Shown piece by piece: positions 1-64,000 of a DNA stretch of 64,000 nucleotides. Numbering within the stretch: the stretch's first letter is position 1; the number at the start of each line of letters is the position of its first letter. The stretch lies in contig DBJE01000003.1 of the NCBI GenBank assembly GCA_002297045.1, positions 65,537 through 129,536 on the forward strand. Direction: 5' to 3'. The position numbers and the translations under genes are program-made. Source of the stretch: Bacillales bacterium UBA784 (lineage in GTDB: Bacteria; Bacillota_I; Bacilli_A; RFN20; CAG-288). The notes below the pieces were generated by a model that was given only the letters and a program-made list of their open reading frames with translations, had not been told where the DNA came from and searched no databases.

Positions 1-48
1 ATCCATATTTTGCCTTACTTTCTATCCGACTAATGTCGGGTGTTTCTT

Positions 49-558
49 CTACTTCCTGGAGATGACGACCCAGCGATCATTATCCAGACCGGAAAGATTA
101 TCGTAGATCCGGATGAAAAGTTCCTTCCTTCCGCTTTCCCCTTTGTAGTAAAGGGAAGAGTCCTTATTGATGTAGACATAAATCTGATCATCCCTTTTTT
201 CCCCTAAAGCGACAAGGGCGTGTTTTGCTTCGAAGTTGTTCTTTGCGATTCCAATCAGGGTATATCCGCAGTTGGAATTTCCCGGAACCGGAATCCGTCT
301 TCCGTCCTTATGGGCAAAACGGATTTCTTCCCCTTTCGTGAGATTTCCGTGGAAGACCCATTCATCCACTCCGTAAAGGGGAGATTTCTGACTGTAGAGT
401 TGATACATCTTGTTGCCTTGGACTAGATAAATGTCACCGCCTATTTTGTCCGAAGGAACAATCTTGGAACTTTCCCTCCTAGGCTTCGCCTTGAATCCGC
501 CGCTCTTCCCCCGCCTTGTCTCTAATTTCTTAACTACTCTCTTTTTCTGGCTAATCAT
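49..558 (-). CDS. hypothetical protein (169 aa)
   Basis: Long ORF. Track ORF 49..588 trimmed to the ATG at 558 (MISQKK...), 7 nt downstream of AGGAGG. No family recognised by eye. Confidence 0.5.
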   Translation of the reverse strand: MISQKKRVVKKLETRRGKSGGFKAKPRRESSKIVPSDKIGGDIYLVQGNKMYQLYSQKSPLYGVDEWVFHGNLTKGEEIRFAHKDGRRIPVPGNSNCGYTLIGIAKNNFEAKHALVALGEKRDDQIYVYINKDSSLYYKGESGRKELFIRIYDNLSGLDNDRWVVISRK

Positions 559-607
559 ATTTCTTCCTCCTTGCTGGAAACGGCTCAACTTATTATATAG
601 TATTTTT

Positions 608-1912
608 ATGATAAAATCTTCTTTGATGAAGAATATTGACAGGAAAGAGAACAGGGATTTTGACTTTGCCTCCCTTAGGAAAGACTACGCCAATAAGGGG
701 CAGAGGGAGCAATTCCGCCTTGGAAGGAAGGAGGATCCTGTTTCCTGCGCAAGGAGGAATCCTTCTTATAGGACAAGTGAAAAAAGGAAGCAGGTATTTC
801 CTTATCTTGAAGAGGATAAAAACGATCCTCTTCTTTTCCGTTTCGACAAGAAGAAGCATGCTTTAGGGAAAAGCATGGAACAGGCTATCGGTGCTTTCTA
901 TATTCTTGACCCCTCTAGTGCCTACCCATCCTATTTCCTGGGGAAACTTCTTCCCCCTTCTTTTGTGTCTATGGACTTATGTGCAGCTCCCGGAGGCAAA
1001 TCCATCGCCCTGTCCTTCAGAAGAAAGGACGGACTCTTTTTGGCTAACGATATTTCCTATACCCGTGCCATCGAAATACAGAAGAACGCAGATAAATTAG
1101 GCAGGGATAATCTTCTCTCCCTGTCAAGGGATCCAAGGAAGAGGAACCTTTCATCCTGTTTTGACTTAGTCATCCTTGATGCTCCCTGCTCGGGTTCCGG
1201 AAGGATCCGGAAAGAGAAGAAAAGGAGGGATGACTTCTCCTTGGAGAAGGTCTCCCGTCTTCTTCCTATTCAGGAATCCCTTCTGGAAAAAGCTGTTTCT
1301 TTAGTAAAGAAAGGCGGCTATCTTTGCTATTCCACCTGTTCCCTTTCTATAGAGGAAGATGAAGAACAGGTTAGGAAAAGGATGAAGAGACATAAGGAAA
1401 TGGAATTAGTCGAGCTACCTGTAGATAGAAACGTTCTTATAGGAAAAAACAAGATTGGCTACCATATGGTTCCAGGGATTTATCAAGGGGAGGGGATTTA
1501 CTTTGCCGTATTAAGAAAAAACGACGGGGAAAGGAACAGTCTGACTCCTTTATCCTTACAGAACCATGTTTTCCCCTTCCGTAAAAGGGAATACTACGTT
1601 CAGAGAATGTTCAAGGAGATTTCTTCCCTTGGCTATATTTCACCAGGCCTGAAAATCAAGGATAGTTCTCCCTATCCAAAGTGTGAATTCGATTATGCCT
1701 ATAGTAAGGCAGTGACCACTCTTCCCTTCCTTCCTCTTTCCCGCAAAGAGGCTAGGGACTATCTTCTTGGCAATCAGCTATCGATTCATAGTGAAAGGAA
1801 GGACGGACTTGTCGTTCTCTCCTATCAGGGAATCCCTCTTGGGTTTGGAAAGAAAATAAAAAACCAGGTGAAGAACTATCTTCCCAAAGGACTCCGCGTC
1901 AAAACCGAATGA
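608..1912 (+). CDS. NOL1/NOP2/Sun-family RNA cytosine-C5 methyltransferase (RsmB/RsmF-like)
   Basis: Motifs DLCAAPGGKS, ILDAPCSGSG and YSTCS (catalytic Cys). Track start 431 overlaps the divergent gene; the first ATG beyond it is 608 (626 also possible, no strong RBS). Confidence 0.8.
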   Translation: MIKSSLMKNIDRKENRDFDFASLRKDYANKGQREQFRLGRKEDPVSCARRNPSYRTSEKRKQVFPYLEEDKNDPLLFRFDKKKHALGKSMEQAIGAFYILDPSSAYPSYFLGKLLPPSFVSMDLCAAPGGKSIALSFRRKDGLFLANDISYTRAIEIQKNADKLGRDNLLSLSRDPRKRNLSSCFDLVILDAPCSGSGRIRKEKKRRDDFSLEKVSRLLPIQESLLEKAVSLVKKGGYLCYSTCSLSIEEDEEQVRKRMKRHKEMELVELPVDRNVLIGKNKIGYHMVPGIYQGEGIYFAVLRKNDGERNSLTPLSLQNHVFPFRKREYYVQRMFKEISSLGYISPGLKIKDSSPYPKCEFDYAYSKAVTTLPFLPLSRKEARDYLLGNQLSIHSERKDGLVVLSYQGIPLGFGKKIKNQVKNYLPKGLRVKTE

Positions 1913-2647: not shown

Positions 2648-4441
2648 TTATTTAATCAGTCCGCTTTCTTTAAGCAGAAGCTCGACATCCGTCCCTTTCA
2701 CCTTCTTGGTGACGATCTTAAGCAGTTCCTTCTCCTTGAAGGATAGTTTAATATCGCAAAGAGGCTTCTTGTCGATGGCATAGTAGCAGGCACGGAGAAG
2801 CTCGCGGACATCGTACTTGCTTCCCCAGACTTCCGGTACTCCACGGTCGATATTGAGCAGAGTATAGACGGCTTCCCTTCCTGTGCGCCTAGAATATTCT
2901 GTCGTGAAGATCGTGTCCCGGGGCGTCTCGGCAAACTGACCGATGAAGGCAAAGTTGACGGAGCCTTTCGGAACGACGAGAGGACGGTCGGATCCTTTCC
3001 GCGGCTGGAAGAAGGCGTTGATGTATGGCCTAAAGCAGGTCGTGGTGTTGCAGGCATTCTTGGCCAAGGACTCAATGTCCTCTTCCGGAACTCCGATGTG
3101 ATAGAGCCACTCTTTGCAGACTTCTTCGCCGGTGCATTCCTTCCTAGGCTTCTTGACAAAGTTTCCTTCTTTGTCGGTGCTAAGGGCATAGAGCCAGACA
3201 AGAATCCTGTTTTTGTCCTGGGATTTAAACTGCGGCTGACGGTTGATGGTCCAGGAAAGATACCAGTTGTCCCTGCTATCCTTCACGGTGACAATACCGC
3301 CGGTCGTGACCTTTCCGGAGCGCGGATCACGCTTGCAGATTTTCCTGATGTGGTCGATGATTTCCTGATTGGAAGTGGCGACTGTCGCACTCCTCCAGTT
3401 CGTGGCCTTGATGTCGCTACAGAAGGCATCCGGGTTTCCGTATTCCCCGTTCTTCGCCTGACTGGCGATTGCCTTCCACCTGTCCCAGGATTCTCCTTTT
3501 CCGTTCTCTAGATGGGAGAGATCCGGGGCATGGCTTTGATCCCCGTAGCAGGAGGAATCGGTGCAGCAGCCGTTGGTGATGAAGACAAGATCATCCTCAA
3601 TCAGGTCGATTGTCGCTTCCTTTCCGTCCTTGACATAGACAATCTTCTTGGCAACTTTCTTTCCGTTCACATCTTCGATGATGACGTTCTTGACGTCCCT
3701 GCCATATTCGATCTTTACTCCGTGGCTTTCGAGATATTTGACAAGGGGAAGAATCCTGCTCTCATATTGGTTATATTTGGTGAACCGAAGGGCCGAAAAA
3801 TCCGGAAGTCCGTCGATGTGATGGACATAACGGCAGAGATAACGCTTCCTTTCTAATGCACTTGACCAGCGCTGGAAGGCAAACCTAGTCTGCCAGTAAA
3901 GCCAGAAGTTCGTTGACCAGAAGGATTCCGGAAGGACGTCGGAAATCTTCTTGTCTTCCAGATCCTCTTCCGGAGTAAGGAAGAGTTTGGAAAGGGCGAG
4001 TGCAGATTCCTTGTCTAATTTGAACCTTTTGTCGGTGTGGGCATCCTCTCCGCATTTCACGGTTGCGCGGCAGAGAGAGTAGTTCGGATCATGCTTGTTC
4101 AGCCAATAGTACTCATCCAGTACGGAGTTATCCGGATTGTCTAGGCTAGGGACGGAACGGAAGGTGTCCCACCTGACTTCGAAATGATTGTCCCTTTCCC
4201 GTCCTCCGCGCCTAAAGAATCCTTTGGTCACATCCTTGCGTCCGTCGCAGCTTCCTCCGGCGAGTTCAAGCTTCTCGAGAAGATGGATATGTTCGCCTTT
4301 CCTCTGTCCGTCACGGACAAGATAGAAGGCTGCGGTAAGTCCGGCTAAGCCGGTTCCGATAATATAGGCAGACTTGCTGTCGACTCCCTGAGGCTTCTCC
4401 GGACGGGCGAATGCCTCATAATTTCCTGCGGAATAGTACAT
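2648..4441 (-). CDS. ohyA: oleate hydratase (MCRA family, FAD-dependent)
   Basis: Full-length similarity to recalled oleate hydratases: MYYSxGNYEAFARP, IIGxGLAGLxAA FAD fold, GGRE(M)xNHFE, KFTKYNQYES, FTTEYSxRTxxEAVY. No internal ATG in 597 codons. Confidence 0.95.
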   Translation of the reverse strand: MYYSAGNYEAFARPEKPQGVDSKSAYIIGTGLAGLTAAFYLVRDGQRKGEHIHLLEKLELAGGSCDGRKDVTKGFFRRGGRERDNHFEVRWDTFRSVPSLDNPDNSVLDEYYWLNKHDPNYSLCRATVKCGEDAHTDKRFKLDKESALALSKLFLTPEEDLEDKKISDVLPESFWSTNFWLYWQTRFAFQRWSSALERKRYLCRYVHHIDGLPDFSALRFTKYNQYESRILPLVKYLESHGVKIEYGRDVKNVIIEDVNGKKVAKKIVYVKDGKEATIDLIEDDLVFITNGCCTDSSCYGDQSHAPDLSHLENGKGESWDRWKAIASQAKNGEYGNPDAFCSDIKATNWRSATVATSNQEIIDHIRKICKRDPRSGKVTTGGIVTVKDSRDNWYLSWTINRQPQFKSQDKNRILVWLYALSTDKEGNFVKKPRKECTGEEVCKEWLYHIGVPEEDIESLAKNACNTTTCFRPYINAFFQPRKGSDRPLVVPKGSVNFAFIGQFAETPRDTIFTTEYSRRTGREAVYTLLNIDRGVPEVWGSKYDVRELLRACYYAIDKKPLCDIKLSFKEKELLKIVTKKVKGTDVELLLKESGLIK

Positions 4442-8241: not shown

Positions 8242-8316
8242 TGGTAGCGGGGGAAGGATTTGAACCTCCGGCCTTCAGGTTATGAGCCTGACGAGCTACC
8301 ACTGCTCTACCCCGCG
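8242..8316 (-). tRNA. initiator tRNA-fMet (anticodon CAU), CCA encoded
   Basis: 75-nt cloverleaf read on the minus strand: CGCGGGG-TA-GAGC-AGTGGTA-GCTC-G-TCAGG-CTCATAA-CCTGA-AGGCC-GGAGG-TTCAAAT-CCTTC-CCCCGCT-A-CCA. The C1xU72 mismatch and an acceptor/anticodon arm close to E. coli tRNA-fMet indicate the initiator. Confidence 0.9.
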
Positions 8317-14762: not shown

Positions 14763-15335
14763 ATGATTGTTCTAACCGGACCTTCTGCCAGCGGCAAGAC
14801 TGCCACGTGTCTTTATCTTCAGGAACACTACGGGATCAAGAAAGTCATCACGCATACGACCCGTCAGAGGCGTAAGGGCGAAGTCAACAACGTTGACTAT
14901 CATTTCGTTTCTGTGGAAGAGTTCAGGAAGAGGAAGGCGAACGATGAATTCATCGAGACTACCTTCTATAACGGAAACTACTACGGAACAAGCCGCAAGG
15001 AAGTCTCCATCGATAAATGCAGGGCTGTGGAAGGGGCAGGGGCAAAGACCTATAAATCCTTCCATGATCCGAAAATCGTCCTCTTCTATAGGCTTCTTGA
15101 CGAGAAAACAAGACGGGAGAGAAGGGAAAGCCGGGGAGATGACCCGGAAAAAATCAAGGCCCGTCTTCTCAATGATGAAAAGGCCTTCTGCCTCGATGAG
15201 GAAAGGAAGAAGATCGTCGATGTCTATGTCGATACGAAAAAATACGATATCCCTTCCGTTGCCGAGTACATTTATTCGCAGTATCTTGAGGTCCTAAAGA
15301 AAAACGGGGTGGATACTTCCTCCTTGATAAAGTAA
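14763..15335 (+). CDS. gmk: guanylate kinase
   Basis: P-loop GPSASGKT, then THTTRQ-AGG-RKGEVNNVDYHFVS (the TTRxMRxGE...DYxF motif). RBS GAGGAGG. Confidence 0.9.
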   Translation: MIVLTGPSASGKTATCLYLQEHYGIKKVITHTTRQRRKGEVNNVDYHFVSVEEFRKRKANDEFIETTFYNGNYYGTSRKEVSIDKCRAVEGAGAKTYKSFHDPKIVLFYRLLDEKTRRERRESRGDDPEKIKARLLNDEKAFCLDEERKKIVDVYVDTKKYDIPSVAEYIYSQYLEVLKKNGVDTSSLIK

Positions 15336-20428: not shown

Positions 20429-21142
20429 ATGATCAAAAATTACCAGAAAGACTTCGATTATTCCTATACGGAAGGCTTCTTTCCCACCTTTGAACTGATA
20501 GAGAATAGGAATGACCGATTGCGTCTTGTCTATGTTTCCCCGGATGCCCTTGACACTCCCGGCTATAGGAAACTGAAGGGCAGGGTAGAGGAGAAGAAAA
20601 TCGTTGTCTCCGCAAAGGCCTTCGCCATAACGAAGAGCAAGGAAAATGCCCACGTTCTTGGTGTATTCGGCAAGTTCCAAAGCAAGCTTGATCCTTCTCT
20701 CTGCCATCTTGTCAGGGTGAATCCATCGGACAGGGGAAATCTAGGAAACGCAAGGCGGACCCTTCTCGCCTTCGGCTTCCACGACCTTGCCTTAATTACC
20801 CCCTGTGCAGACTATTTCTCCCCGAAGGCCGTCCGGGCCTCAAGGGGTGCTCTTTTCCATCTCCGGATTGAGGCCTTTCCTTCGTTCCAGGATTATTTGA
20901 AATCCTATCCACGGCCTTATTATCCCTTTGTCCTTCGACAGAGCAGACCGCTTAAGGAAGTCTCTTTTGCTAACCCCTGTTCCCTTGTCTTTGGAAACGA
21001 GGCGAGCGGCCTTCCGGAAAGCATCTACAACGAAAACAATGTCCGGATCGAGCAGAGCGATGAAGTCGATAGTCTGAATCTGACGACTTCGATTGCCATC
21101 GGACTATATGAACTGAAAAGGCAGCTTAGCCTATTTCAATAG
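20429..21142 (+). CDS. TrmH/SpoU-family RNA 2'-O-methyltransferase
   Basis: NPSD.GNLGN..RT, VRAS-AGG-GALFHL (RASMG motif if AGG=Met), LVFGNEASGL, SLNLTTSIAIGLYE. Confidence 0.85.
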   Translation: MIKNYQKDFDYSYTEGFFPTFELIENRNDRLRLVYVSPDALDTPGYRKLKGRVEEKKIVVSAKAFAITKSKENAHVLGVFGKFQSKLDPSLCHLVRVNPSDRGNLGNARRTLLAFGFHDLALITPCADYFSPKAVRASRGALFHLRIEAFPSFQDYLKSYPRPYYPFVLRQSRPLKEVSFANPCSLVFGNEASGLPESIYNENNVRIEQSDEVDSLNLTTSIAIGLYELKRQLSLFQ

Positions 21143-24878: not shown

Positions 24879-27800
24879 TTATTCGACTTGGATTTCTTTC
24901 TCCTTGGCCCTGAGAAGAGAGAGTAGGAAAAGACGGATGTTCTCTTTTTTTGTGCCAAAGAGCTTTTCGACGACATGCTGGTAGACATGGAGCTGGTCTT
25001 CATAGGCGGGATCATCGATTTCCTTTGTCTTATAGTCAACGATGTAATAGGTCCCTTCATAGAGGAAGAGAAGATCGATAGAGCCCTGCCTTTCTTCCTC
25101 TTCGCTTAGGTCATAGCTTAGCTCCTGCCGATAGGAAGAAGCCTTTTTTGCCTTCTGCCTTAACGGAGTAGAGAAGACTTTATTGATGGCATCCTTCCTC
25201 TTTTTGTCGCTAAGGAAGGATAAGTCCGGATTTTTCAGATTGATGCCCTGCCTGATTTCATGGAGTCTTGTTCCAAAGTCAAGCAGACGGTTTTCCCTTC
25301 TTTCGTCTTGGGTCAGTTTCTTGGAAGCACGGATTCTCTTCTTTTCCTCAAAGCCGAGGTCATCGTCGTTTAAGGTTCCGCTTTCCTTGCCGGGGATAGG
25401 ATAGAGGAATTCGTCTTGTTTCCCTTTCCCAGAACACTTGTTGTCTTTTACTGAGTCATAGATGGCATAGGGGATCTCCTCATCATCGAGATAATAGTGG
25501 CTTCTTGTCACATATTCGATTCTATTTGACGGATTGTTTTCAGTCCTGATGTTGACAAGGGAAAGAAGGAAGGCTTTATTGATTCTTTTCAGTCTATCTT
25601 TTTTATTCTTGATGTTCTTCCTTCCTAGCTTAAGGCAGTCACCTTCCTTTAGTCCATCGAGAATGTCACGGAGGAAAGCTTCTCTGCCATCCTTGTTCCT
25701 CTTTTTCCTTTGTTCCTCAAAGGATGCGGATGCGGAATCCTCGTCTTCATCGCTGCCCTGATCTTCATCGCTTTCCTCCTCATCCTCATCCCTTGTAGGG
25801 GTAAGAGAATCAAGATAATCGTTCAGCTGATTGAAGGTGGTTAAGTCTTTCTTCAGATAATGGAAGGCAAACAGGGCACTGATTTGGTCAAGAGTAGGGT
25901 TCGATTCAAGGAATCTGTTCCGGTATTGGTTACCTAAGACCTCCCTGATTCCCTCCCTTTGTTCTTCATAGAGACTGCTATAGTACGGAAGAAGAACCTC
26001 GTTTTTAAAGCGGTCATATAATGCCTGATTTTCCCCTTTTAGATTGCTGATAGGGAAGGAGAGAGAGGCAAGGTCTTTTTTCCGCTCTTCCAGTGCATCC
26101 TTCCTCTCTTTGTTGATCAGAAGAGGGTTCCTTTCTTTGATGTGTGGGAGCCTATTCCTCCTATATTGGGCGTTTTCCTTTTTCTTATCCGTGGAATCCT
26201 TTTCCCCGTCTCCGACAAAGATGAGATTGTTCTCGGCACGGGTTAAGGCGACATAGAAGAGACGGACGTGTTCGTCTCTCTCTTCTTTCTTTAAATCTTC
26301 CCTCTTATACCTTTTATAGTTGAAGGGATAGATATCCTTATCCGGGAAGGAGAGAAGATCCCCGTCTCGATTGTACTTTGGATTAATCCGGTAATCGGGA
26401 AGGAGAATTCCGTATTTCAGGGAGAAGTCATAGTCCGGCTTTGTCCTCTGATTTACTTTTGTCCTCTTGTTTTGGTAAATCGGCCTATAGAGGATATTCC
26501 TTTCAAGACCCTTAGAACCATGGATAGTCCTTAAATTGACGGCATCCTCGTTCCTAACGGAAGACTTATCGAGAAGCTCGACTTTGTACTTGTTCCTGTT
26601 CTGCCTTAAGGAGAGGAAGCCATCCCTTCCTTCTCCCCTCTCTTCCTGGTTTTTAATCCTTGCCTGCCTGGATTCAAGTTTTGCCAAGGAAACGGAGACA
26701 TTGCCGAGCGTATAGAGCTTATCGATGATGGAGAAGGAGGAGAGCCTATTGGTGAAGATCAGGGAGAAAGGATTATCTTGGTTATCCTGGATGAACTGTT
26801 TCCTCTTTGAAAAAAGAGGATCCTTTAGGACTAAGTCAAGAGTCCCCTGCGGCTTATCGTTGCTCTTGCCATAGGCAAGAATCGGGAAGAGCGTATCATC
26901 GGAATAGTTCCTGATATAACTTCTTGCCACAGAGGCAAAAAGATGTTTGACCTGGCAGGTTGGGTTCTTTCCCCTAAGATAGGCCATTAAAGAGACAAGC
27001 GACTGAACGACAATCACCGGTTCGACCTTGGAAAGAGCATCCTCGGAGATGGAATTCAGCGGAATGTTTCTTTTCTGGAAAACTTCCTGGAAAGAGGAAA
27101 AACTGGATTTCGTTCGGCAGAGGATTCCAAAGTCGGAGTATCTTACCTTGCGGAAAGAGGCCCTGTCCCGGTCATAGATCTGGTAGCCTTCCTTCCTTTT
27201 CTTCTCGATATCGTCAGCGATGGCATTGATTTCCCATTCTCTGCAGTTTTTAGAGTTCTTTGCCCCGTCATAGTCTTCCCGGATAGAAATAATCCGGGAA
27301 ATTCCAAAGGACTTATTCTTCCTCTCCTTGTCCTTGTAAAGGTCGACACCATTATCATAGCTTAACTGCTCACTTTCATCCCTGTAGTCGATTCCGCCAT
27401 GGTCGAGAGTCCTGTACTTTTCAAAGATGGCGTTAATCTGATGGAGAAGGCGGGGCTGGGAACGGTAGTTCTTGTTCCTGGCAATGACTTCTCCGTTCTC
27501 CGGATGGTCGAGATAGTCCTTCTGACGTTTACGGAAGAGCTCGACCTTGGAATTACGGAACCCATAGATGGACTGCTTGGCATCGCCGACACAAAAGAGG
27601 TGCGATCTTGTTCCGTCATCCTTCTTCTGCCTAAGGGAAGAGAGGAACAGTTCCTGGGCATCGTTGGTATCCTGGTATTCATCCACCCTGATGTAGGTGA
27701 AACGGTTACGGATTTCTTTTGCCGCCTTTTCGTATTTTTTATCGGTCCTTAGCCTAAGAGAGAGTCTTCCGATGTCGGCAAAGGTGAAGACGTTGCTTGT

Positions 27801-32658: not shown

Positions 32659-32752
32659 GGTTTATTTGCCTCCTTTTCAATTTGTTTTCAAAAAATATCA
32701 AGAGAATTTCCTTTAGATTTCAACTTTTATTCGTTTTGATGATAAAAGGAAA

Positions 32753-33112: not shown

Positions 33113-33144
33113 AATTACTTACCTCCTATTGGTTTGACTTCTCT

Positions 33145-33172: not shown

Positions 33173-33425
33173 GAAATGTCTTGAAATTAAATTTGCAAGC
33201 CAAAAATATCGAACAAAATTCGTAGAAAATGTTCATTTATATCCGTGCAACTAAAATTTATGGAAGAATAAAAAAACGAAGAAAAATATCAGACTATAAG
33301 ACTATCTTCTTTTTTCTTGCTGATTCAAAGTATCAACATTCCCATGTTTAGCTCAGGAACTTCCGAAAACAGTCATAGTCTTTTTTAACTGTCGTACGGA
33401 GAAAGATGAGTATACTCTTCATTCT

Positions 33426-33455
33426 CCTTGATGCAGGATTGCATCTGCATCAAGG
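33426..33455. repeat. perfect 11-bp inverted repeat (CCTTGATGCAG-n8-CTGCATCAAGG)
   Basis: Read directly. Lies in a 650-bp non-coding gap and is not followed by a T run. Confidence 0.8.
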
Positions 33456-33764
33456 AAAGCATGAAGATACTTGATAATGAATTACTTTGCGGCCATGTAT
33501 GGTCAGAGCACAAATGTATGAGGATGCAGCATGCTACCACCTACTGCTTTCGCTTCTGTCTATTCAACAAGTCTATTAGGACCCTCGGTGAGTCAACCAT
33601 AGAACATCTAGAAGTGTCCTGCCTTCCCCTTTAGAAATGGATACAGGATGAGTTATTGAAATCTAGTTGAAAATATTTTTTAAAGCGTTCACTTCAAAGA
33701 TGGTTCACTGATTATAACATCCAAGTGGTGCATTAACACTTCAGTTTCTTCTTTAGAGATACAT

Positions 33765-36629: not shown

Positions 36630-36632
36630 CGA

Positions 36633-38177: not shown

Positions 38178-38865
38178 AATCTTTTAACCTCTTGTAGTTC
38201 ATTACACACCGGTGGACAAACTTTCCTTCTCCGTTGTTGTTATTGTCGAAGAGGGATTCTTGCCCATTTAGGTCCCTCTCAGGATTTTCGTTCTGCTTAA
38301 GAATCTCATCGAACGTGTATTCGCTTCTGGATAGCTGAGGTCCGGTCACGAATCCCCATTCGCTGAAGACAATCGGTTTGTCTATGTCATTTCCTTTTTC
38401 GTCGACTTCATGCAACGTCAGAGCATTCCCGCAGACGATGTTTTTAGAAAGAATGAAACGGATGGAGTCCCGCCTATCCTCGCCGCATTCCTTTTTGCAG
38501 ACTGATTTGTATTGTTTGTCCCAGATTTTGAAAAGACGTTCCCGGCATGCAATCACGTTGTCCATCCTGATGTCTACGCCATATAGGCTGGATACGGCAA
38601 GAAGGGAATTCTTCTCGAAATCCATTACGCTTCGGCGGTATTTCTTCTTCACGACTGCCAGTTTTCTATCGAGAATCTCGGCAAGGAAGTTCCCGTCACC
38701 ACACGCAGGCTCCAAAAATCTTGAATCAATTCTCTGGGTTTCGTCGTTGACGAGGTCACACATCGCCTTGACTTCACGCTCATTGGTGAAGACCTCACCA
38801 TGGTCTACGACACGCTTTCTGGACTTGATCTGCCTGTTCGTTTTCTTTTTCGTTTCCTTAGGCAT
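38170..38865 (-). CDS. truncated methyltransferase-like protein (SAM-binding half only, no NPPY)
   Basis: GEVFTNEREVKAM (motif X) and FLEPACGDGNFL (motif I) and YGVDI are present, but the protein ends without a (D/N)PPY catalytic motif. Translationally coupled on both sides. Confidence 0.6.
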   Translation of the reverse strand: MPKETKKKTNRQIKSRKRVVDHGEVFTNEREVKAMCDLVNDETQRIDSRFLEPACGDGNFLAEILDRKLAVVKKKYRRSVMDFEKNSLLAVSSLYGVDIRMDNVIACRERLFKIWDKQYKSVCKKECGEDRRDSIRFILSKNIVCGNALTLHEVDEKGNDIDKPIVFSEWGFVTGPQLSRSEYTFDEILKQNENPERDLNGQESLFDNNNNGEGKFVHRCVMNYKRLKDYE

Positions 38866-39056
38866 CACTCGTCCACCTCGATCTTGTGTTTCTTGAAATA
38901 AGGAGCGAGCTTTCTCTTTGCTTTGATGGTCGGCTTATGGGAGCCTCTTTCCCAGCGGTTGACGGTCTGAAAGGAAACACCCAAAAGATCGGCTAGTTCC
39001 GTCTGCGACAATATCAAAGTGGTTCTCAGCTTCTTGACAGCTTCTGCATAGGTCAT
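38865..39056 (-). CDS. XRE-family helix-turn-helix protein (candidate controller of the R-M operon)
   Basis: LSQTELADLLGVSFQTVNRWERG HTH. Start at the ATG at 39056, 8 nt after AGGAG. Stop overlaps the next start (TGATG). Confidence 0.8.
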   Translation of the reverse strand: MTYAEAVKKLRTTLILSQTELADLLGVSFQTVNRWERGSHKPTIKAKRKLAPYFKKHKIEVDE

Positions 39057-39081
39057 AGGTCCGCTCCTGTTCTGTTTCAAA

Positions 39082-39110
39082 AGTATACCATTTTCATCCC
39101 ATTCTGTCGA
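39082..39110 (-). promoter_or_regulatory. promoter of the HTH/MTase/Res operon
   Basis: Minus strand: TCGACA, 17-nt spacer ending in TGG, then TATACT (extended -10). Confidence 0.5.
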
Positions 39111-39141
39111 TGAACCATAGAGAGGAATCTAGACTTCTCTA

Positions 39142-41019
39142 TTAGTTCTTGACCAACTGTTTAAGATATTCGCGCAGATTATCATCCTCCGCATAAATGA
39201 ATGTTCCTTTTACGCCGCGTGTAAGAAGGACTTTATAGGTGTTTCGGATCAGTCTCTCGGCTAAGGCATCATCGGCTGTTCTGATTCCGCTTGCGGAATC
39301 GCTATGGGCGTTCCTTTCCTTATGGAATTCGATTTTTCCTGTTCTCTTGTTGTAAGTAAGATCCTTTCCGATGATGACCCCCGCATATTCGACTTCCAGC
39401 CCTTGGATAGTATGAATACAGAATACGTTCCTCTTCTGCGTGTCATCCAAAATGGCCGCTCTATCCGCCTTCTTGATGTTCCAGCGTAGTTTTGTTCCGT
39501 CCTCGTATTCGAAATCGTATTTCTCGGAATCGTATTGGCTGACCCATTCATGGGTGTAGCCGGCCATCAGTCTCATCTGATGGTTGGAATTCCAAAGCTT
39601 ATTCCATTTCTCCATCCTGTCTTTCCTGGAACCCATGATTTCCACTTTGTATTTCATGCCTTTGAGGGATACGAAATCATTCGTATAACCTAGGAAATGA
39701 TTGACGAAGGCGATGTACTGCTCTCCGCCCACGCATCTGAACTGGGAGGAGAGAATCATTCTGCTATCTTCGATGACCTTCGAACCGTATTTTTCGGCAT
39801 ATTCCTTTATCTGCTTGATTGACAAATCATCGGAAGCGGTGACAACCTGATCCTCATCGATCAGAAACACGTTGACTCTTGACGCATTGAAGAGCTTGTC
39901 GATGACATCAACGCTTTTCTGCACGCCCCATCCGAACTTCCATTTCAGCCTTCGGTGGGCTTCATCGACGATAATGCAGTCAAAATCATAGGCCGCCGAC
40001 TTTGCAAAGGCGGCAGGAGTCTTGAAGAGTTCCTTGATTGCCTTCTTCGTGAAATCCTTGGTCAGGATATCGCTGAAATAAGTACGCGGAGTGAAGTTTG
40101 CGGTCACATAGCAGGCGTTGCGTCTTGGCCGTCCATCTTTTGGGTGGATGAGCTGGCCAAGCGCGTTGATGGCGACGATGGACTTGCCTGACCCCGGCCC
40201 TCCTTTTACGATGATGGTTCTTCTCTCTCCTTTTTCCAAAGCCTCCTGAACCTCGCTGACGATTTTGGAAACGGAATAGGACTGCTCGGCATCATAGGAG
40301 AAGAAGGGCTCGCCGTTGATGGCGTCTGCGACCATCTTGGAGAAGCCTTCGCTCGGTCTGATCTGGGAACTGTCGATTTCATAGAGCGTGTTGCGACTGT
40401 AGGGTTTCTTTATATATCTGGCGATGAATTCGCTGAGCTTCTTCTGATCGTCCTTTAAGAAAGCAGGTGCCTCACGCACTAAAGGATAGTCCTTTTCATT
40501 TTTCAGAAGGACTTCATATCCTTCCGGCATATTGTGGAGATACGAGCAGGCGTTCACTCCGACGTTGTTAGTATAGATATACTCGTTGAAATCCTTCCTG
40601 ATGTTGGCATAGTTCAGTGCCTGGTAGGAAGGATGCCAGTAATCGTCCACGCCATGTCCTCCATCGGTGACGACATAGTCTTTCAAGAAGGATCTTCTCA
40701 CCGAGCTCCATTGCTTGAGCTCGATAAGGATGACATTCTCTTTGTCTTTTTCGTCTCTTCCGAAAATGAGGAAGTCGACTCTCTGCTTTGTGTCGACAAG
40801 CTTATATTCGACACCGACGCCGGCTTCCTTTGGAATGGAACCATCCTCCAATGCTTCTGCCACTTTTGGAAGGGAGTGGATCCAGGAATTGTATTCGCTT
40901 ATTGATCCTCCACCGATATGGTGTGCCTTGAATCCATCCAAAAGCAACTTGCCGATGACAGGATTTGGTCCTTCACAGTTGCTTATGAAATTCCCTACAC
41001 TATCGCTATATAAAATCAT
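39142..41019 (-). CDS. DUF2075-family (Schlafen group-3-like) ATPase/helicase with N-terminal PD-(D/E)xK-like nuclease region
   Basis: N-terminal VDFLIFG...VILIELKQW nuclease-like core, Walker A KGGPGSGKS, Walker B CIIVDEAH, QFRC, C-terminal TIQGLEVEYAGVIIG and LLTRGVKG. RBS GGAGGGGG. Confidence 0.8.
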   Translation of the reverse strand: MILYSDSVGNFISNCEGPNPVIGKLLLDGFKAHHIGGGSISEYNSWIHSLPKVAEALEDGSIPKEAGVGVEYKLVDTKQRVDFLIFGRDEKDKENVILIELKQWSSVRRSFLKDYVVTDGGHGVDDYWHPSYQALNYANIRKDFNEYIYTNNVGVNACSYLHNMPEGYEVLLKNEKDYPLVREAPAFLKDDQKKLSEFIARYIKKPYSRNTLYEIDSSQIRPSEGFSKMVADAINGEPFFSYDAEQSYSVSKIVSEVQEALEKGERRTIIVKGGPGSGKSIVAINALGQLIHPKDGRPRRNACYVTANFTPRTYFSDILTKDFTKKAIKELFKTPAAFAKSAAYDFDCIIVDEAHRRLKWKFGWGVQKSVDVIDKLFNASRVNVFLIDEDQVVTASDDLSIKQIKEYAEKYGSKVIEDSRMILSSQFRCVGGEQYIAFVNHFLGYTNDFVSLKGMKYKVEIMGSRKDRMEKWNKLWNSNHQMRLMAGYTHEWVSQYDSEKYDFEYEDGTKLRWNIKKADRAAILDDTQKRNVFCIHTIQGLEVEYAGVIIGKDLTYNKRTGKIEFHKERNAHSDSASGIRTADDALAERLIRNTYKVLLTRGVKGTFIYAEDDNLREYLKQLVKN

Positions 41020-49302: not shown

Positions 49303-50436
49303 ATGAAAGAAATCTATTTCGATAATGCCGCTACGACGAAACCTTATCCGGAGGTTCTTTCAATCTTCGATAAGGTCGCCAGGGATGATTTTGCTAACGC
49401 CAGCTCAAGGCATGCCTTAGGGCTTAAGGCCCATGACCTGTTAGAGAAGGCCAGACGGCAGATTGCCCGCTACCTAAAAGTGAAGGAGAACGAAATCGTC
49501 TTTACCTCCGGCGCAAGCGAAGGAAATAACCTTGCCATCAAGGGGGTCAGCTATCATAACCATGGCTGGGCGAACCGGATCATTACCACAAAGGCCGAAC
49601 ATCCCTCGGTGAGGAATGTCTTCATGAAGCTTGAGAAAGAAGGCTTTGATGTCGTCTACCTTGACTATGACAAAGAAGGCAGACTGAACCTTGAAGAGCT
49701 AAAGAACGCCCTGAACGAACACACTTCCTTAGTCTCCGTCATGGCTGTCAATAATGAACTCGGGGATGTCTTCCCTATCCATGAAGTCCATGAGCTTCTG
49801 AAAGGAAGCAAGGCTGTCCTCCATGTTGACGCCACGCAGGCAATCGGCAAGGAGGATGTGGACAGCAAGGACTATGACCTGATGACTTTCTCTGGACATA
49901 AAATCGGTGGAAGGAAGGGATCTGGTCTGCTGGTCAAGAAGGAAAAAGTCAGGCTCGACGGACAGATTCTAGGCGGAAGCCAGGAAGAGGGCCTTCGGGC
50001 AGGGACAAGTCCGCTTCCTCTTGACTGCTCTCTTGCCACTGCAATCCGTCTTACCCTCACTTCCCAAAAAGAGAGAAGAGAAAACGCCAGAAAGAGGAAC
50101 GGATTCCTAAGAGAGGAATTATCCAAGATTCCGGAAATCGTCATCACTTCCCCTAACAGTGGGACTCCCTTTATTCTTTCTTTCGCCTTGACTAAACATA
50201 AAGGCTCCGTCATTGCCCAGGCTCTTTCGGATAGAGGCATCTATGTATCGACGAAGTCAGCCTGCTCGGCAAGAGAAGCCGGTTTCTCTTCCGTGGTGAA
50301 AAACGCCGGCTATTCTTCCTTGGTTGCCTCTAACAATATCCGTCTTTCCTTTTCGGGAAGAGAGAGCCTAGAGGAAGGAAGCTACTTCAGGGAAGTGTTG
50401 AAGGATATCCTTGCCCATACAAGGATTAAGGAGTGA
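49303..50436 (+). CDS. class V aminotransferase-fold cysteine desulfurase (NifS/IscS/NifZ-like)
   Basis: FTSGASEGNN, PLP-Lys motif SGHKIGG, active-site STKSACS. Precedes thiI. Confidence 0.9.
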   Translation: MKEIYFDNAATTKPYPEVLSIFDKVARDDFANASSRHALGLKAHDLLEKARRQIARYLKVKENEIVFTSGASEGNNLAIKGVSYHNHGWANRIITTKAEHPSVRNVFMKLEKEGFDVVYLDYDKEGRLNLEELKNALNEHTSLVSVMAVNNELGDVFPIHEVHELLKGSKAVLHVDATQAIGKEDVDSKDYDLMTFSGHKIGGRKGSGLLVKKEKVRLDGQILGGSQEEGLRAGTSPLPLDCSLATAIRLTLTSQKERRENARKRNGFLREELSKIPEIVITSPNSGTPFILSFALTKHKGSVIAQALSDRGIYVSTKSACSAREAGFSSVVKNAGYSSLVASNNIRLSFSGRESLEEGSYFREVLKDILAHTRIKE

Positions 50437-50438
50437 AC

Positions 50439-51620
50439 ATGGACGGAAACAGCAATCTTATCGTCGTCTTTTTCGGTGAACTGACGACCAAAGGGAAGAA
50501 CATCAGGGATTTTATCAACCTGCTCGGGAAGAACATCCGTTTTGCCCTGAAAAAATATAAAAACCTGACCTATGATATCCGTAGGGATCATATTTATATC
50601 CATCTGAACGGGGAGGACTATGCATCCATCAAGGAAGACCTTTCTAAGGTTCCTGGCATTGGTTCCTTTGCTTTGGCAATCCGTGTCGACAAAGACCTTG
50701 CCGCCATCAAGGAACAGGCCTTAGAAAGGTATAAGGAAGTCAGTCCCTCCTCTTTCAAAATCGACACGAAGCGTGCCGACAAGACTTTTCCTTTGACCTC
50801 CGATGAGATAAGCCGGGAAGTCGGGGCCTATATTCTCACCCACAGCGAGAACGGACACGTCGATGTCCATCATCCGGAGCTTATGATCCATGTCTCCATC
50901 CGGAGGAAGGATGCCTATGTCTACGGAAAGAAGGATAAAGGCAGGGGCGGCTATCCTTTAGGAATTGCCGGAAAGTCTTTGTGTCTTCTCTCCGGCGGCA
51001 TCGATTCCCCGGTTGCAGCCTATCTTAGGAGGAAGCGTGGAGTCAAACTGGAGTGCATCCATTTTGCCGCCCCGCCTTATACCTCCCAGGCCGTCATCGA
51101 GAAAATCCATGATCTTCTCCATGTCCTTAATGTCTATCAGCCTGACATCAAGCTTTACGTCGTCCCCTTCACGAATCTAGAGCGGAAAATCTACGAAGTC
51201 GCCGGCCCTAGCTATTGTGTCACCGTCAGGAGACGGAGGATGCTCCGGATCAGCGAAGCCATCGCCTATAAACACAATGACCTAGTCATCTCAGGCGGAG
51301 AAAGCATCGGCCAGGTTGCCAGCCAGACCCTCTATTCAAGGAAGGTCATTGAGGAAGTGTCCACGCTTCCCTTTATCCGACCTCTTGCCACCTATGATAA
51401 AACCGAAATCATCGATATTGCACAGAAAATCGGGACGTTCGACATCTCCATCCGTCCATACGAGGACTGCTGCACGATTTTCACCCTGAAAGACCCGGTA
51501 ACGCATCCGAATCTAGACAAGGTCAAGGAAATCGAGAATAGTTTCGACTGGAAGAGCCTGAGGGTCGAATGCATTAAGAACACAACCGCTGAGCATATCA
51601 CCAGCGATGAGGAATTCTAA
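50439..51620 (+). CDS. thiI: tRNA 4-thiouridine synthase ThiI
   Basis: THUMP domain then PP-loop LLSGGIDSPVAAYL. ATG at 50439 lies 5 nt after AAGGAG (track start 50433 is GTG). Confidence 0.9.
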   Translation: MDGNSNLIVVFFGELTTKGKNIRDFINLLGKNIRFALKKYKNLTYDIRRDHIYIHLNGEDYASIKEDLSKVPGIGSFALAIRVDKDLAAIKEQALERYKEVSPSSFKIDTKRADKTFPLTSDEISREVGAYILTHSENGHVDVHHPELMIHVSIRRKDAYVYGKKDKGRGGYPLGIAGKSLCLLSGGIDSPVAAYLRRKRGVKLECIHFAAPPYTSQAVIEKIHDLLHVLNVYQPDIKLYVVPFTNLERKIYEVAGPSYCVTVRRRRMLRISEAIAYKHNDLVISGGESIGQVASQTLYSRKVIEEVSTLPFIRPLATYDKTEIIDIAQKIGTFDISIRPYEDCCTIFTLKDPVTHPNLDKVKEIENSFDWKSLRVECIKNTTAEHITSDEEF

Positions 51621-51684: not shown

Positions 51685-52056
51685 TTAAGCAGCTTTCTTG
51701 CCGTTCTCGATGGCTTTCTTGGAAAGTTCGACGAACTGTTTGAACTGCTCTGCGTTGGTTCCGGCTAATTCGGATAACCTCTTACGGTTAAGCTGGACAT
51801 CAGCAAGCTTAAGTCCGTACCTGAACTGGGAATAAGAGATTCCGTTCAGCTTGCAGGCTGCGGAGATACGGCGGATCCAAAGCTTACGATAGTCACGTTT
51901 CCGTTCCTTACGGCCGACGAAGCTCTTGGCATCGGCTTTCCTGACCGCTTCCTTGGCAGTCTTGAAAAGCTTATGACGGGATCCGTAGAATCCCTCTGCG
52001 CGGTCTAAGATACGTTTCCGGCTATCATGCCGGACAGTTCCACGTTTAACTCTCAT
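51685..52056 (-). CDS. rplT: 50S ribosomal protein L20
   Basis: MRVKRGTV...KRDYRKLWI.RI.AA...G.SYS.F..GL....NRK-AGG-LSELA. Confidence 0.95.
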   Translation of the reverse strand: MRVKRGTVRHDSRKRILDRAEGFYGSRHKLFKTAKEAVRKADAKSFVGRKERKRDYRKLWIRRISAACKLNGISYSQFRYGLKLADVQLNRKRLSELAGTNAEQFKQFVELSKKAIENGKKAA

Positions 52057-52074: not shown

Positions 52075-52269
52075 TTACTTGTTGATCAGCTGACGCCTCT
52101 TCTTCGTATTTAACGAAGTGAGGTAACGGGCCTTCCGGTTGTGACGGATCAGCTTATGGCTCTTGCTGTGCGAGAGGTGGCTTGTATTCTGGTTCCACTT
52201 CTTGATTTTGCCGGTTCCCGTAACTTTGAAACGTTTGACGGCAGTACGTTTACTCTTCCTCTTTGGCAT
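52075..52269 (-). CDS. rpmI: 50S ribosomal protein L35
   Basis: MPK-AGG-KSKRTAVKRFKVTGTGKIK; codon 4 is AGG where the family has Met. Confidence 0.95.
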   Translation of the reverse strand: MPKRKSKRTAVKRFKVTGTGKIKKWNQNTSHLSHSKSHKLIRHNRKARYLTSLNTKKRRQLINK

Positions 52270-52846
52270 TAGATTGCCCTCCTTGTTTTTTCCTGACGAC
52301 GTTCTTCGGATTCAGCCTGACGAAGTAATCCCGTCCTAACAGATCGGGAGCCTTCTCCCTCGTGCTATGGTCTTTGACGAGCTCAAGGAAGCTTGCCCTT
52401 GTCTCCTTGACGATGTCCCTTCTTTGCCTCCTACGGCCTTTGATGAAGACGGCGACTTTGACTTTCCTTCCATCATCAAGGAACTTGTTGGCGGCTTTTG
52501 CCTTCGTCTCAAGATCGTGCTTATCGGTCGTCGCAGTGAAGCGGATTTCCTTAATCACGGTCTTCTTCTGGTTCTTCTTTGCCTCTTTGGCTTTCTTTTC
52601 CCGGTCGAACTTGTATTTGCCGTAGTCGACAATCTTGCAGACCGGAGGATGGGCCATAGGAGAAATGCAGAGAAGATCCATCTGGGCATCATAGGACTTT
52701 GCCTGGGCGACACGGATCGGCACGATCCCGTAGTTTTCGCCCTGAGGTCCGATAAGAAGAACCTCTTTGAAGTGGATACGCTCATTGACGAGATCCGTAT
52801 TCTTCTTCGGACGGAAACGATTGTTCGGGTTATTACTGTTAAGTAT
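52250..52846 (-). CDS. infC: translation initiation factor IF-3 with non-canonical ATA (or ATT) start
   Basis: The track ORF starts at an internal GTG. The frame stays open upstream: ...NSNNPNNRFRPKKNTDLVNERIHFKEVLLIGPQGENYGIVPIRVAQ..., the IF-3 N-domain. There is no ATG/GTG/TTG between the GGAGGT RBS (52854..52859) and this region. ATA at 52844..52846 is well spaced; ATT at 52850..52852 is too close. Confidence 0.8.
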   Translation of the reverse strand: MLNSNNPNNRFRPKKNTDLVNERIHFKEVLLIGPQGENYGIVPIRVAQAKSYDAQMDLLCISPMAHPPVCKIVDYGKYKFDREKKAKEAKKNQKKTVIKEIRFTATTDKHDLETKAKAANKFLDDGRKVKVAVFIKGRRRQRRDIVKETRASFLELVKDHSTREKAPDLLGRDYFVRLNPKNVVRKKQGGQSNAKEEE

Positions 52847-52859
52847 AAGAATTACCTCC

Positions 52860-62018: not shown

Positions 62019-62077
62019 ACATCATCATTATACAGGCTTTAAGGACGGAACGTATCGGCTAATTGGATAAAATCGGA

Positions 62078-62626
62078 TTATCTGTCTATTTCGATGTTGC
62101 CGTAAGAGTGGTCATCACGCTCATAGAGGACGTTGACAAGCCCTGTCGCGGAATCAAGATAGATGAAGAAGGAATGGCCAAGCGCATCCCTGCGGGCTAA
62201 GGCCTCATCCCTATCCCTTGGGGCCAGGGAGAGAGACTTCCGCTTGACGACTTCGAAGTCCTTTTCGTCTAGTTCGCTCTTGGAGATATCCTCCCTCTTG
62301 AAGGAATCGTTGAAGGATTTGTTTTTCTTTTTTGCCTTTTCGAGCTGCGTCTTCCTTTTCCGCCTCTGACCTTCTAGCTTTTCGACCACTAGGTCAATGG
62401 CATTGTAATAGTCGGAGTCAATGGCTTTTGCACGGAGAAACACACTTCCCGCCTGCCTGGACACTTCTACGGATACCTGTCTCTCTGAAAGCACTTTCAG
62501 AGTTACCGAAGTGTGGATGTTTTCCCTGTTGCGGAAGTAACGATTGAATTTTGATAGCTTATCTTCGGTACTTTTCTTCCTTGCCGGAGTAACGGATACA
62601 TCTTTGGATATATATTGGATTTCCAT
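62078..62626 (-). CDS. hpf: ribosome hibernation promoting factor (long HPF/YvyD type)
   Basis: N-terminal S30AE domain, K/E linker, C-terminal dimerisation domain (HSFFIYLDSATGLVNVLYERDDHSYGNIE). Confidence 0.9.
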   Translation of the reverse strand: MEIQYISKDVSVTPARKKSTEDKLSKFNRYFRNRENIHTSVTLKVLSERQVSVEVSRQAGSVFLRAKAIDSDYYNAIDLVVEKLEGQRRKRKTQLEKAKKKNKSFNDSFKREDISKSELDEKDFEVVKRKSLSLAPRDRDEALARRDALGHSFFIYLDSATGLVNVLYERDDHSYGNIEIDR

Positions 62627-62718
62627 ATTACTGTAACCCCTTTCGTACTTATATTATAGAGAAAGAAGCCGGCTTTTTAAAGGGGAAGGAAAAAGGCCGG
62701 CTTCCACCGGCCTTCCCC

Positions 62719-64000
62719 TTATTTTCTTTCGACTACTTTGATGGTGCTGTCTTTGGTGTCCTTGAGGATCTGTCCCTTCTCCTTCCTATAGAAGCTGATC
62801 CTCTTCAAGGTCTCTTTGTTTACCCTTTCCCCAGGGAGGATTATCGGAATTCCCGGAGGATAGGCCCTGATGGTCTCTTCCGAGATTTCACCGACGGCAT
62901 CCTTGAGGGAAACAACCTTGCAGGGTGCATCGTAGGCTGCTCTTGGTGCCCTTACCCTTGTCGGATAGGAGAATCGGTAGCGAAGGACGGATATCTTCTT
63001 TCCATCCCTGTAATGCTCCTTGGAAAGACGTTTAAAGGCATCGATCAGTCTATCCACGTGTTCTTTTGTGGTGCCAGGACCGACAATAGCCAGGACGACC
63101 GACACTTCCCCAAGCTCAAGCTGGATATTGGATTCTTTCCGGATTTCCTTGAAGACGTCATAGCCGAACCTGTTTAATCCCCGGACATCAATGACAAGCT
63201 TAGTCAGATCCACATCGTGTACGCCGGTGTTGTTCTTTTCCTTGACGTATTCCTTGCCAAAGACTTTGATTCCAGGAATTTGATTCAGTTCCTTCCGGGC
63301 ATATTTTGCAAGGGAAAGACAGTTTTCGATGATTTCCTCTCCGTGGAGGGCCCTTTCCTTTCTTGCGGCATCCAGACTACACAGGAAAGGATGGTAGGGG
63401 GAGGTGGAAGAAAGCCTGGCAAAGGCTCTCTTCACTTCCCTGAAGTCGACCATCTTCCCTTTTGTCAGGAGCAGGGAGGTCTGGGTCAGGGAGCCGGAGT
63501 TCTTATGCCTGCTCCTTGCCGTGATGTCGGCATTGCAGGCCATGGCCGAGCTAGGAAGCTTAGAGGAAAAGTAGAAGTTTGAACCATGGGCTTCGTCGCA
63601 CCTGACAATCCTATTCCGGCTATGGGCTTCCTTGACGATGTCCTTTAAATCGCTTACTACTCCAAAATAGGTCGGATTGATGACGAAAACGGCTTTGGCG
63701 TCTCTGTTCTCGTCCCTCGCCTTGATGACGTCTTCCTTTCTCCTTCCGCAGGCTATGCCAAGGTCTTCGTCGATATAAGGATTGACGAAAACAGGAACGG
63801 CCCCGGAAAGAATAAGGCCGTTCACGATGGATTTATGGATGTTCCGCGGCCTGATGATCTTGTCTTTTGCACAGAGGCAGGCAAGCATCCTTGTAAGGAT
63901 GGCACCTGTCGTACCATTCACGGAAAACAGACAATGATCCGCATGACAGGCTTTGGCAGCAAGCTCTTCAGCCTGTTTGATCACACCGGTGGAATGATAA
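62719..64000 (-). CDS. Orn/Lys/Arg decarboxylase family PLP enzyme (5' end outside the window)
   Basis: Fold-I decarboxylase. PLP-Lys motif S-AGG-HKNSGSLTQTS. The frame stays open through 64000 (the track M at 63984 is an internal GTG). Confidence 0.85.
   Translation of the reverse strand, partial: YHSTGVIKQAEELAAKACHADHCLFSVNGTTGAILTRMLACLCAKDKIIRPRNIHKSIVNGLILSGAVPVFVNPYIDEDLGIACGRRKEDVIKARDENRDAKAVFVINPTYFGVVSDLKDIVKEAHSRNRIVRCDEAHGSNFYFSSKLPSSAMACNADITARSRHKNSGSLTQTSLLLTKGKMVDFREVKRAFARLSSTSPYHPFLCSLDAARKERALHGEEIIENCLSLAKYARKELNQIPGIKVFGKEYVKEKNNTGVHDVDLTKLVIDVRGLNRFGYDVFKEIRKESNIQLELGEVSVVLAIVGPGTTKEHVDRLIDAFKRLSKEHYRDGKKISVLRYRFSYPTRVRAPRAAYDAPCKVVSLKDAVGEISEETIRAYPPGIPIILPGERVNKETLKRISFYRKEKGQILKDTKDSTIKVVERK

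Follow-up and report, generated by a model that had tools for sequence, protein, structure and literature searches.

Is AGG, a codon that translation table 11 reads as arginine, read as methionine in the genome of Bacillales bacterium UBA784? The question is raised by a 64,000-nucleotide stretch of this genome (assembly GCA_002297045.1, contig DBJE01000003.1; hereafter the window, positions 1..64000), which codon usage, Pfam scores, codon alignments and source identity place in the chromosome of the species Enterosoma (UBA7642) sp002297045. An earlier note, made from the letters alone, had claimed that AGG means methionine throughout this DNA. The present analysis leads to the same answer: judged from sequence, AGG has almost certainly changed its meaning from arginine to methionine, of which it would now be the main internal codon; ATG serves for starts and, less often, for internal methionine, AGA and the CGN codons encode arginine, and TGA, TAA and TAG are stops. 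Three independent tests agree on this reading: the likelihood under Pfam profiles, the residues found opposite AGG in relatives (in ThiI, in OhyA and in roughly twelve more genes), and the interchange of ATG and AGG among recoded sister species. The reassignment is already published for the species of the window, which stands in the AGG-as-methionine list of the Codetta paper (Shulgina and Eddy 2021, eLife 10:e71402, PMC8629427), so that the attribution to the Enterosoma change made in the earlier note was correct.

Codon usage was determined in a set of 46 long non-overlapping open reading frames (ORFs), which was later extended to 48 ORFs (18,343 codons). In the 46-ORF count only 121 internal ATG codons were present (6.7 per 1000 codons), against 30.8 per 1000 for AGG, 11.4 for AGA and 26.3 for the four CGN codons summed; the 48-ORF count gave 567 AGG codons (30.9 per 1000). 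Expressed per 10,000 codons, AGG and ATG amount to 308 and 67 in all ORFs and to 347 and 53 in the native genes, as distinguished from a foreign-looking island described below. AGG thus reaches 34.7 per 1000 in native genes and ranks ninth of the 61 sense codons over all ORFs. The arginine codons of the native genes are led by CGT, and only narrowly (CGT 159, CGG 146, AGA 144, CGC 100). In the same orthologues, 77 relatives with the standard code have 18-42 ATG and 0-15 AGG per 1000 codons, which bears out the near-lack of internal methionine and the excess of AGG that had been noticed in the window. Base composition is no match for this preference: AGG/(AGG+ATG) is 0.87 in native genes compared with a G/(G+T) of 0.39 at four-fold degenerate sites, and the GC (guanine plus cytosine) content of the window is 0.463.

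Individual genes follow the same pattern. The oleate hydratase gene ohyA of the MCRA family (2648..4441, minus strand) contains 18 AGG and, as had been claimed, no internal ATG. The addB-addA pair (24879..31623, minus strand) contains 109 AGG codons (about 48 per 1000), 66 of them in addA; the statement that addA has a single internal ATG holds if translation begins at the second ATG, and fails for the ORF as listed, which has two. All eight codons whose positions had been cited (in rpmI, rplT, the HAD and TrmH genes, ohyA, gmk, the AlkA-like gene and potA) are in-frame AGG codons with the neighbors quoted for them, and the SRAP gene reads HPR-AGG-P-AGG. The stop codons are conventional, with 30 ORFs ending in TAA, 12 in TAG and 6 in TGA. 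Two of the TGA-ended genes could be compared with orthologues, and their alignments extend to residue 377 of 377 and to residues 597-601 of 601. With table 11, conserved genes form uninterrupted ORFs, and nothing of the kind expected for TGA as a sense codon (tables 4 and 25) was seen; TGA still terminates genes, and the code is not code 4. Under table 11, 567 codons, or about 3.1% of all residues, are therefore translated as arginine instead of methionine.

The Pfam test follows the logic of Codetta in an aggregate form. Native genes were translated with AGG as arginine, methionine or leucine, and whole-domain bit scores were compared at a reporting cut-off of 1e-5. Summed over 41 family hits, the scores reached 4278.9 bits with methionine, 4181.4 with leucine and 3970.9 with arginine; methionine exceeded arginine by 308 bits (31 hits won, 4 lost) and leucine by 97.5 bits (24 won, 8 lost). 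In 19 further native hits methionine led arginine by 207 bits (17 won, 2 lost), so that the arginine reading costs 515 bits over the 60 hits of both sets. The MCRA domain of OhyA scored 702.1 bits with methionine, 677.9 with leucine and 657.3 with arginine, and the same order was found for IF3_C (86.2, 80 and 73.8) and CBS (60, 54 and 46). Replacing arginine by methionine raised HSP33 from 283 to 311 bits, UvrD_C of the addB-addA pair from 33.9 to 61.7, L20 from 120.1 to 129.5, L35p from 45.6 to 53.9 and the TrmH/SpoU domain from 94.6 to 103.8. The PD-(D/E)XK nuclease domain of AddA and the IMS_HHH and ResIII domains pass the cut-off only when AGG is translated as methionine.

For the comparison with relatives, GTDB species representatives were scanned with thiI (50433..51620, plus strand, 11 AGG) as the anchor gene, which gave 80 loci with 10-kb flanks. 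AGG codons in the window proteins were masked as X before alignment to these loci by tblastn, and the subject codons were read. In relatives with a thiI match of 64-75% identity, AGG stands opposite ATG in 41% of the cells; in more distant ones the share is 25%. This profile is nearly the same as that of the ATG codons of the window, which are matched by methionine in 48% (closer) and 24% (distant) of the cells. The remaining cells opposite AGG are mostly leucine, isoleucine and valine, and arginine accounts for about 1-5%. By contrast, AGA, CGT, CGG and CGC are opposite arginine in 54-72% of the cells of the closer group, with lysine next, as expected if these codons occupy the ordinary arginine positions. 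At least 20 relatives could be aligned at 100 AGG sites, and the majority residue there was methionine at 47, leucine at 19, valine at 6, isoleucine at 5, lysine at 2 and arginine at 1. Columns dominated by arginine, which would have spoken for the standard meaning of AGG, are not what was found.

Single proteins gave the same result at higher resolution. A total of 120 ThiI homologues fall into three tiers of 99-100%, 90-92% and 70-74% identity. Among the 110 standard-code Enterosoma homologues of the 70-74% tier, methionine is the commonest residue at 8 of the 11 AGG codons; at seven of them it is present in at least 106 of 110 homologues, and at codons 25, 199, 266 and 269 all 110 have it. 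Recoded sisters make up the 90-92% tier, and their entries show “R” (AGG translated by table 11), and sometimes methionine, at the same sites. OhyA was compared with 61 cluster representatives (about 30-52% identity): its AGG columns are led by methionine (21.8%) and arginine is outside the eight commonest residues (<3.6%), whereas the CGN and AGA columns contain 47.5% arginine. In AddA and AddB, for which relatives are about 30-35% identical, AGG codons are opposite leucine, isoleucine, methionine, phenylalanine or tyrosine.

The motifs that had been put forward as near-invariant methionine sites fared unevenly. Five of them were checked against homologues, and two have this degree of conservation: codon 93 of rplT (51778..51780; ribosomal protein L20, gene at 51685..52056, minus strand), which is methionine in 63 of 63 relatives, and codon 4 of rpmI (52258..52260; ribosomal protein L35, 52075..52269, minus strand), which is methionine in 49 of 52. 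The other three do not. The AGG of gmk (TTRQ-AGG-RKGE, 14868..14870, plus strand) aligns with proline in yeast guanylate kinase structures and is thus not in an invariant-methionine column, the AGG of the TrmH/SpoU gene (RAS-AGG-GALF, 20843..20845, plus strand) is in a column of leucine, glutamine or threonine in solved homologues, and the GGRE site of ohyA is phenylalanine, leucine or methionine among homologues. The HAD, AlkA-like, potA and SRAP sites were judged solely through the whole-domain Pfam scores.

The third test is provided by the recoded relatives. Only 3 of the 80 loci display the recoded signature of 5-6 ATG and 25-32 AGG per 1000 codons. These ATG-poor and AGG-rich reference genomes are Bacillales bacterium UBA4682, uncultured Mollicutes UMGS1247 and Bacilli bacterium HGM10888; they are only about 75% identical to the window at the DNA level, and their AGG and ATG codons interchange with those of the window. 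The species of the window itself is absent from the loci that the scan gave. In the other 77 genomes AGG is found opposite arginine or lysine codons of the window. The nearest relatives that are not recoded carry the name Candidatus Enterosoma sp.

How AGG might be decoded was approached through the tRNA genes. The only tRNA gene of the window is a tRNA(CAU) at 8242..8316 (minus strand; ARAGORN and Rfam) with a C1xU72 mismatch and an encoded CCA end, and the Rfam scan found nothing else. It is probably the initiator, its sequence being close to that of E. coli tRNA-fMet. ARAGORN found no tRNA(CCU) in the window or in the first 97 retrieved loci, and no elongator tRNA-Met(CAU) was present in the retrieved DNA of the recoded clade, which is a small part of those genomes. 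The AGG-reading tRNA of the clade is described as adjoining a tRNA-Arg(CCG) (PMC8629427). Metagenomes were therefore scanned for a pattern consisting of a CCU anticodon loop, a T-loop, G70-C71-N-A73 and a CCG anticodon loop 33-63 nucleotides further on. Among the matches listed, most are unrelated arginine tRNAs, and one identical tRNA(CCU) recurs in four contigs, whose flanking ORFs are rich in AGG and mostly poor in ATG. Its sequence is GGCCGGGTAGCTCAGCATGGTAGAGCAACCGTCTCCTAAGCGGTTTGTCACGAGTTCGATTCTCGTCTCGGCCACCA. It is located 13 nucleotides upstream of tRNA-Arg(CCG) and has G1-C72, G2-C71, C3-G70, A73, and U20 instead of A20; its anticodon stem has 5 bp, its CCA end is encoded, and a long variable arm is absent. 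Eight more contigs with the identical tRNA(CCU) were found through a conserved downstream gene of 100 amino acids, giving at least 12 contigs altogether. Two of those contigs belong to the ENA samples ERZ26858502 (19.6x coverage) and ERZ26858451 (8.1x), and the same samples include contigs with the exact OhyA of the window at 19.8x and 9.0x, which matches the coverage of the tRNA(CCU) contigs. The shared samples came from a look-up of the 100-amino-acid gene (P0131), and the look-up P0132 led to another lineage with a GC content of about 40%; the contigs around P0132 (L217 and L218) may represent another recoded lineage.

A tRNA with a CCU anticodon, which the earlier note had proposed to look for elsewhere in the genome, was thus found on metagenome contigs, with methionine identity elements and without A20. 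In the proposed mechanism, this dedicated tRNA(CCU) would have lost the arginine identity element A20 and would carry the methionine elements A73, G2:C71 and C3:G70. The combination of these changes suggests that it is charged by methionyl-tRNA synthetase (MetRS) and presumably inserts methionine at AGG, and tRNA-Arg(UCU) would read AGA. Just upstream of the tRNA(CCU)-tRNA-Arg(CCG) locus there is a gene pair for an HTH_3 repressor and a Peptidase_M78 (ImmA/IrrE-type) protein (contigs L223, positions 1-656, L224, and L111, positions 3780-4678), and downstream on the same three contigs there is an AbiEii gene. L111 has 98.7% nucleotide identity, and L223 and L224 are tied to the species of the window by shared samples. 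This neighborhood suggests that a mobile or defence element was inserted beside the tRNA(CCU) locus.

Several points weigh against a plain reading of AGG as methionine, and some of them would be expected if AGG were ambiguous, that is, decoded mostly as methionine through tRNA(CCU) and to a minor extent as arginine through wobble by tRNA-Arg(UCU), leaving the proteome statistically mixed at AGG. Ambiguous decoding was raised by Shulgina and Eddy, and the clade keeps an arginine-type tRNA(UCU) whose U34 could read AGG (PMC8629427). A few AGG codons of the window do lie at conserved lysine or arginine columns, namely ThiI codon 51 (50583-50585), where lysine is present in 105 of 110 homologues, and codon 827 (34149-34151) of a 954-amino-acid island protein, with lysine in 18 of 18 close and 99 of 102 distant homologues. 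Codon 45 of rpsF (19470-19472) is also AGG and falls within the WG[K/R]R motif of the S6 ribosomal protein. These codons may date from the old meaning of AGG, reflect tolerated lysine-to-methionine substitutions (a single transition turns AAG into AGG) or hint at residual arginine reading. However, columns with a lysine or arginine majority make up only 3 of the 100 AGG sites, and lysine and arginine are no more frequent opposite AGG (2.9% lysine and 5.1% arginine, the latter inflated by two recoded genomes that were mis-binned into that group) than opposite ATG (3.5% and 3.6%). Furthermore, AGA is used at a low rate in native genes (9.3 per 1000 compared with 15-30 in most relatives), which fits a lowered demand for tRNA(UCU). 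Ambiguous decoding is on balance improbable. Three further points concern the kind of evidence and the tRNA: tRNA(CCU) lies outside the window, and its link to the species consists of co-occurrence and coverage in two samples together with the table of the published study; the methionine meaning of AGG comes from sequence evidence, and charging by MetRS is deduced from identity elements; and C35 of tRNA(CCU) departs from the methionine identity element A35 (PMC8629427).

A reading of AGG as another hydrophobic residue such as leucine or isoleucine draws on the Pfam scores, in which leucine (4181 bits) lies well over arginine (3971 bits), is only about 2% under methionine in the sum and slightly tops it in 8 of the 41 families, and on the many AGG columns that are leucine, isoleucine or valine in distant homologues. 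The decision for methionine over leucine leans on the strongly methionine-conserved columns and on the ATG/AGG interchange, and this dependence counts against it as well. Nevertheless, methionine is ahead overall, by 24 bits in MCRA alone, it is the commonest aligned residue, the columns of L20 and of ThiI codons 25, 199, 266 and 269 are invariant for it, AGG and ATG replace one another between recoded sister species, and tRNA(CCU) has identity elements of methionine and not of leucine, whose long variable arm it lacks. Leucine or isoleucine is thus a very unlikely meaning of AGG. The standard code, with AGG as arginine in an oddly arginine-rich and methionine-poor proteome or as an artefact of assembly or annotation, has only the default assumption of table 11 in its favor and is hardly conceivable. 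Arginine is far rarer opposite AGG than opposite the other arginine codons in closer relatives, the arginine reading has the large deficit in Pfam bits given above, and the sequence of the window recurs at 99.7-100% identity in independent ENA, Logan and NCBI assemblies, which argues against an assembly artefact.

With AGG as the methionine codon, the window agrees closely with what has been published. The exact ThiI protein of the window is encoded in GCA_002431755.1, where the DNA is 98.9% identical to the window. That assembly is Bacillales bacterium UBA5914, GTDB s__UBA7642 sp002297045 (Figure 3 source data, PMC8629427), for which Codetta inferred AGG as methionine at a GC content of 0.4615, with 234.5 AGG and 58.5 AUG per 10,000 codons (Shulgina and Eddy 2021, PMC8629427). 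The recoded genomes of that study have 209-235 AGG and 59-69 AUG per 10,000, and the clade lies within the GTDB genus UBA7642 or Candidatus Enterosoma in the family CAG-288 of the order RFN20 (PMC8629427). Two 2026 papers call the clade Candidatus Enterosoma, and one of them, a screen of about 2.7 million assemblies, found AGG-to-methionine again in a clade within Enterosoma, with no further AGG-to-methionine change among its new candidates. The window and the published clade share the species, the dominance of AGG, an ATG frequency of about 55-65 per 10,000, CGU as the top arginine codon and a GC content of about 0.46, and the tRNA(CCU)-tRNA-Arg(CCG) locus shares the identity elements described; there is no difference in kind. 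The AGG frequency of 347 per 10,000 in the window, which refers to whole native ORFs, is higher than the published 228-235, which refers to Pfam-aligned columns, and the excess comes from proteins with little conservation, AddA and AddB among them. As a separate observation, HGM10888 (L013, CAAGLY010000018.1; 4.9 ATG and 32.5 AGG per 1000) is outside the eight genomes of the 2021 paper and may be a further recoded lineage.

Other known codes resemble this one in part. AGG has become methionine in mitochondria of the green algal Sphaeropleales, as far as that work is presented by Shulgina and Eddy (Noutahi et al. 2019, PMC6551751; via PMC8629427); the codon and its new meaning are those found here, in what would be a convergent change in an organelle genome of an unrelated lineage with another tRNA history. 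The CGG-to-Trp, CGG-to-Gln and CGA/CGG-to-Trp reassignments in Bacillota and Absconditabacteria (PMC8629427) likewise affect an arginine sense codon and involve a dedicated C34 tRNA, but they occurred in low-GC genomes in which the codon was driven to rarity, whereas here the GC content is 46% and few codons are used more often than the reassigned one. Tables 4 (Mycoplasmatales, UGA as tryptophan) and 25 (UGA as glycine) are also nonstandard bacterial codes, found in reduced genomes, but they are stop-to-sense changes, and in the window TGA terminates six ORFs. AGG-to-methionine is one of five arginine-codon changes that are the first sense-codon reassignments reported in bacteria, and it arose without the low-GC codon loss seen in the other four, which makes it a reference case for a change of meaning of a frequently used codon. 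A practical consequence is that the public protein entries retrieved for the clade carry the table 11 error of arginine for methionine; this mistranslation depresses homology scores, and some Pfam domains are missed.

A further observation concerns the amount of methionine. In the same aligned columns (41961-52723), the window has 35.3 methionine codons (ATG and AGG) per 1000, compared with 25.7 ATG in standard-code orthologues, so that the proteome seems to have gained methionine, chiefly at leucine, isoleucine and valine positions. The published table displays the same trend, with 278-295 compared with 204-262 methionine codons per 10,000 (PMC8629427).

The code, being a property of the translation system of the organism, applies across the whole window, as the earlier note had it, and this includes a restriction-modification and defence cassette at 31741..41019 (minus strand) that looks foreign in its codon usage and was probably acquired horizontally. 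The cassette encodes an SLFN/DUF2075 helicase, a helix-turn-helix (HTH) protein, MmeI-like and Eco57I-like methyltransferases, a T5orf172 and ResIII protein and two unknown ORFs. Its codon usage per 1000 differs from that of the native genes in ATG (14.9 vs 5.3), AGG (9.8 vs 34.7) and AGA (23.0 vs 9.3). The homologues of its 954-amino-acid protein form a continuous series from 91% to 70% identity, in contrast to the stepwise identities of native genes. The same cassette is present at 81-82% nucleotide identity in a conjugative element with the standard code, on a human-gut contig (L229, positions 5605-12862) whose conjugation genes encode a TraG/VirD4 coupling protein and also a relaxase of the MobL type. 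There the cassette has ATG as its sole methionine codon. The orthologue of the 954-amino-acid gene on this contig has 20 ATG and no AGG codons. In the window, 9 of the 11 AGG codons of the gene are at methionine columns and 2 at lysine columns, and for the SLFN helicase the methionine reading adds 9 bits; the idea that the AGG codons of the island are unadapted arginine codons was therefore rejected, and even in the foreign-looking island AGG is mostly at methionine positions.

By its codons the island thus appears to be adapted to the code of the host, and its ATG-rich, AGG-poor and AGA-rich usage indicates that it is only part-way to the methionine codon preference of the host. It looks like a case of gene import across a code boundary with the conversion of ATG to AGG under way. 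In four shared genes, ATG was changed to AGG at 15 of 45 conserved methionine codons, compared with T-to-G changes at 20 of 200 four-fold degenerate sites (Fisher p = 2e-4). This difference, together with the ratios of 0.87 and 0.39 in native genes, suggests a directional pressure towards AGG, for which tRNA supply, avoidance of internal ATG and biased repair are candidates. We consider it a tentative possibility, with the odds slightly against it, that AGG is actively favored over ATG beyond base composition and that the imported cassette is a natural experiment showing this. If so, the new code would be no hard barrier to the import of genes from donors that rarely use AGG. The partial conversion of the cassette and the favoring of AGG are not described in the published accounts of the clade that were consulted and may go beyond them; as a finding, the change of code is not new, and codon amelioration of imported genes and AGG preference could be developed further.

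Some additional features of the window involve gene boundaries. The infC gene (52250..52852, minus strand, 8 AGG), encoding IF3, starts with ATA or ATT at about 52846 or 52852, which is about 120-130 nucleotides upstream of the first GTG; the upstream in-frame translation matches the IF3 N-terminus and is preceded by a GGAGG motif. A nonstandard start codon is usual for IF3. In the public gene calls for two contigs of the species infC is missing from this place, and a 165-amino-acid ORF without Pfam hits is called on the opposite strand instead. The region 17650-20430 was considered as an ORF-poor stretch and dismissed as such, as it contains short ordinary genes: rpsF (19338-19622), ssb (19648-20097), rpsR (20131-20358) and a DinJ/YafQ-like antitoxin-toxin pair (18352-18624 and 18073-18234, minus strand). 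Methionine codons in rpsF-ssb-rpsR consist of 7 ATG and 4 AGG, unlike those in rplT, rpmI and infC.

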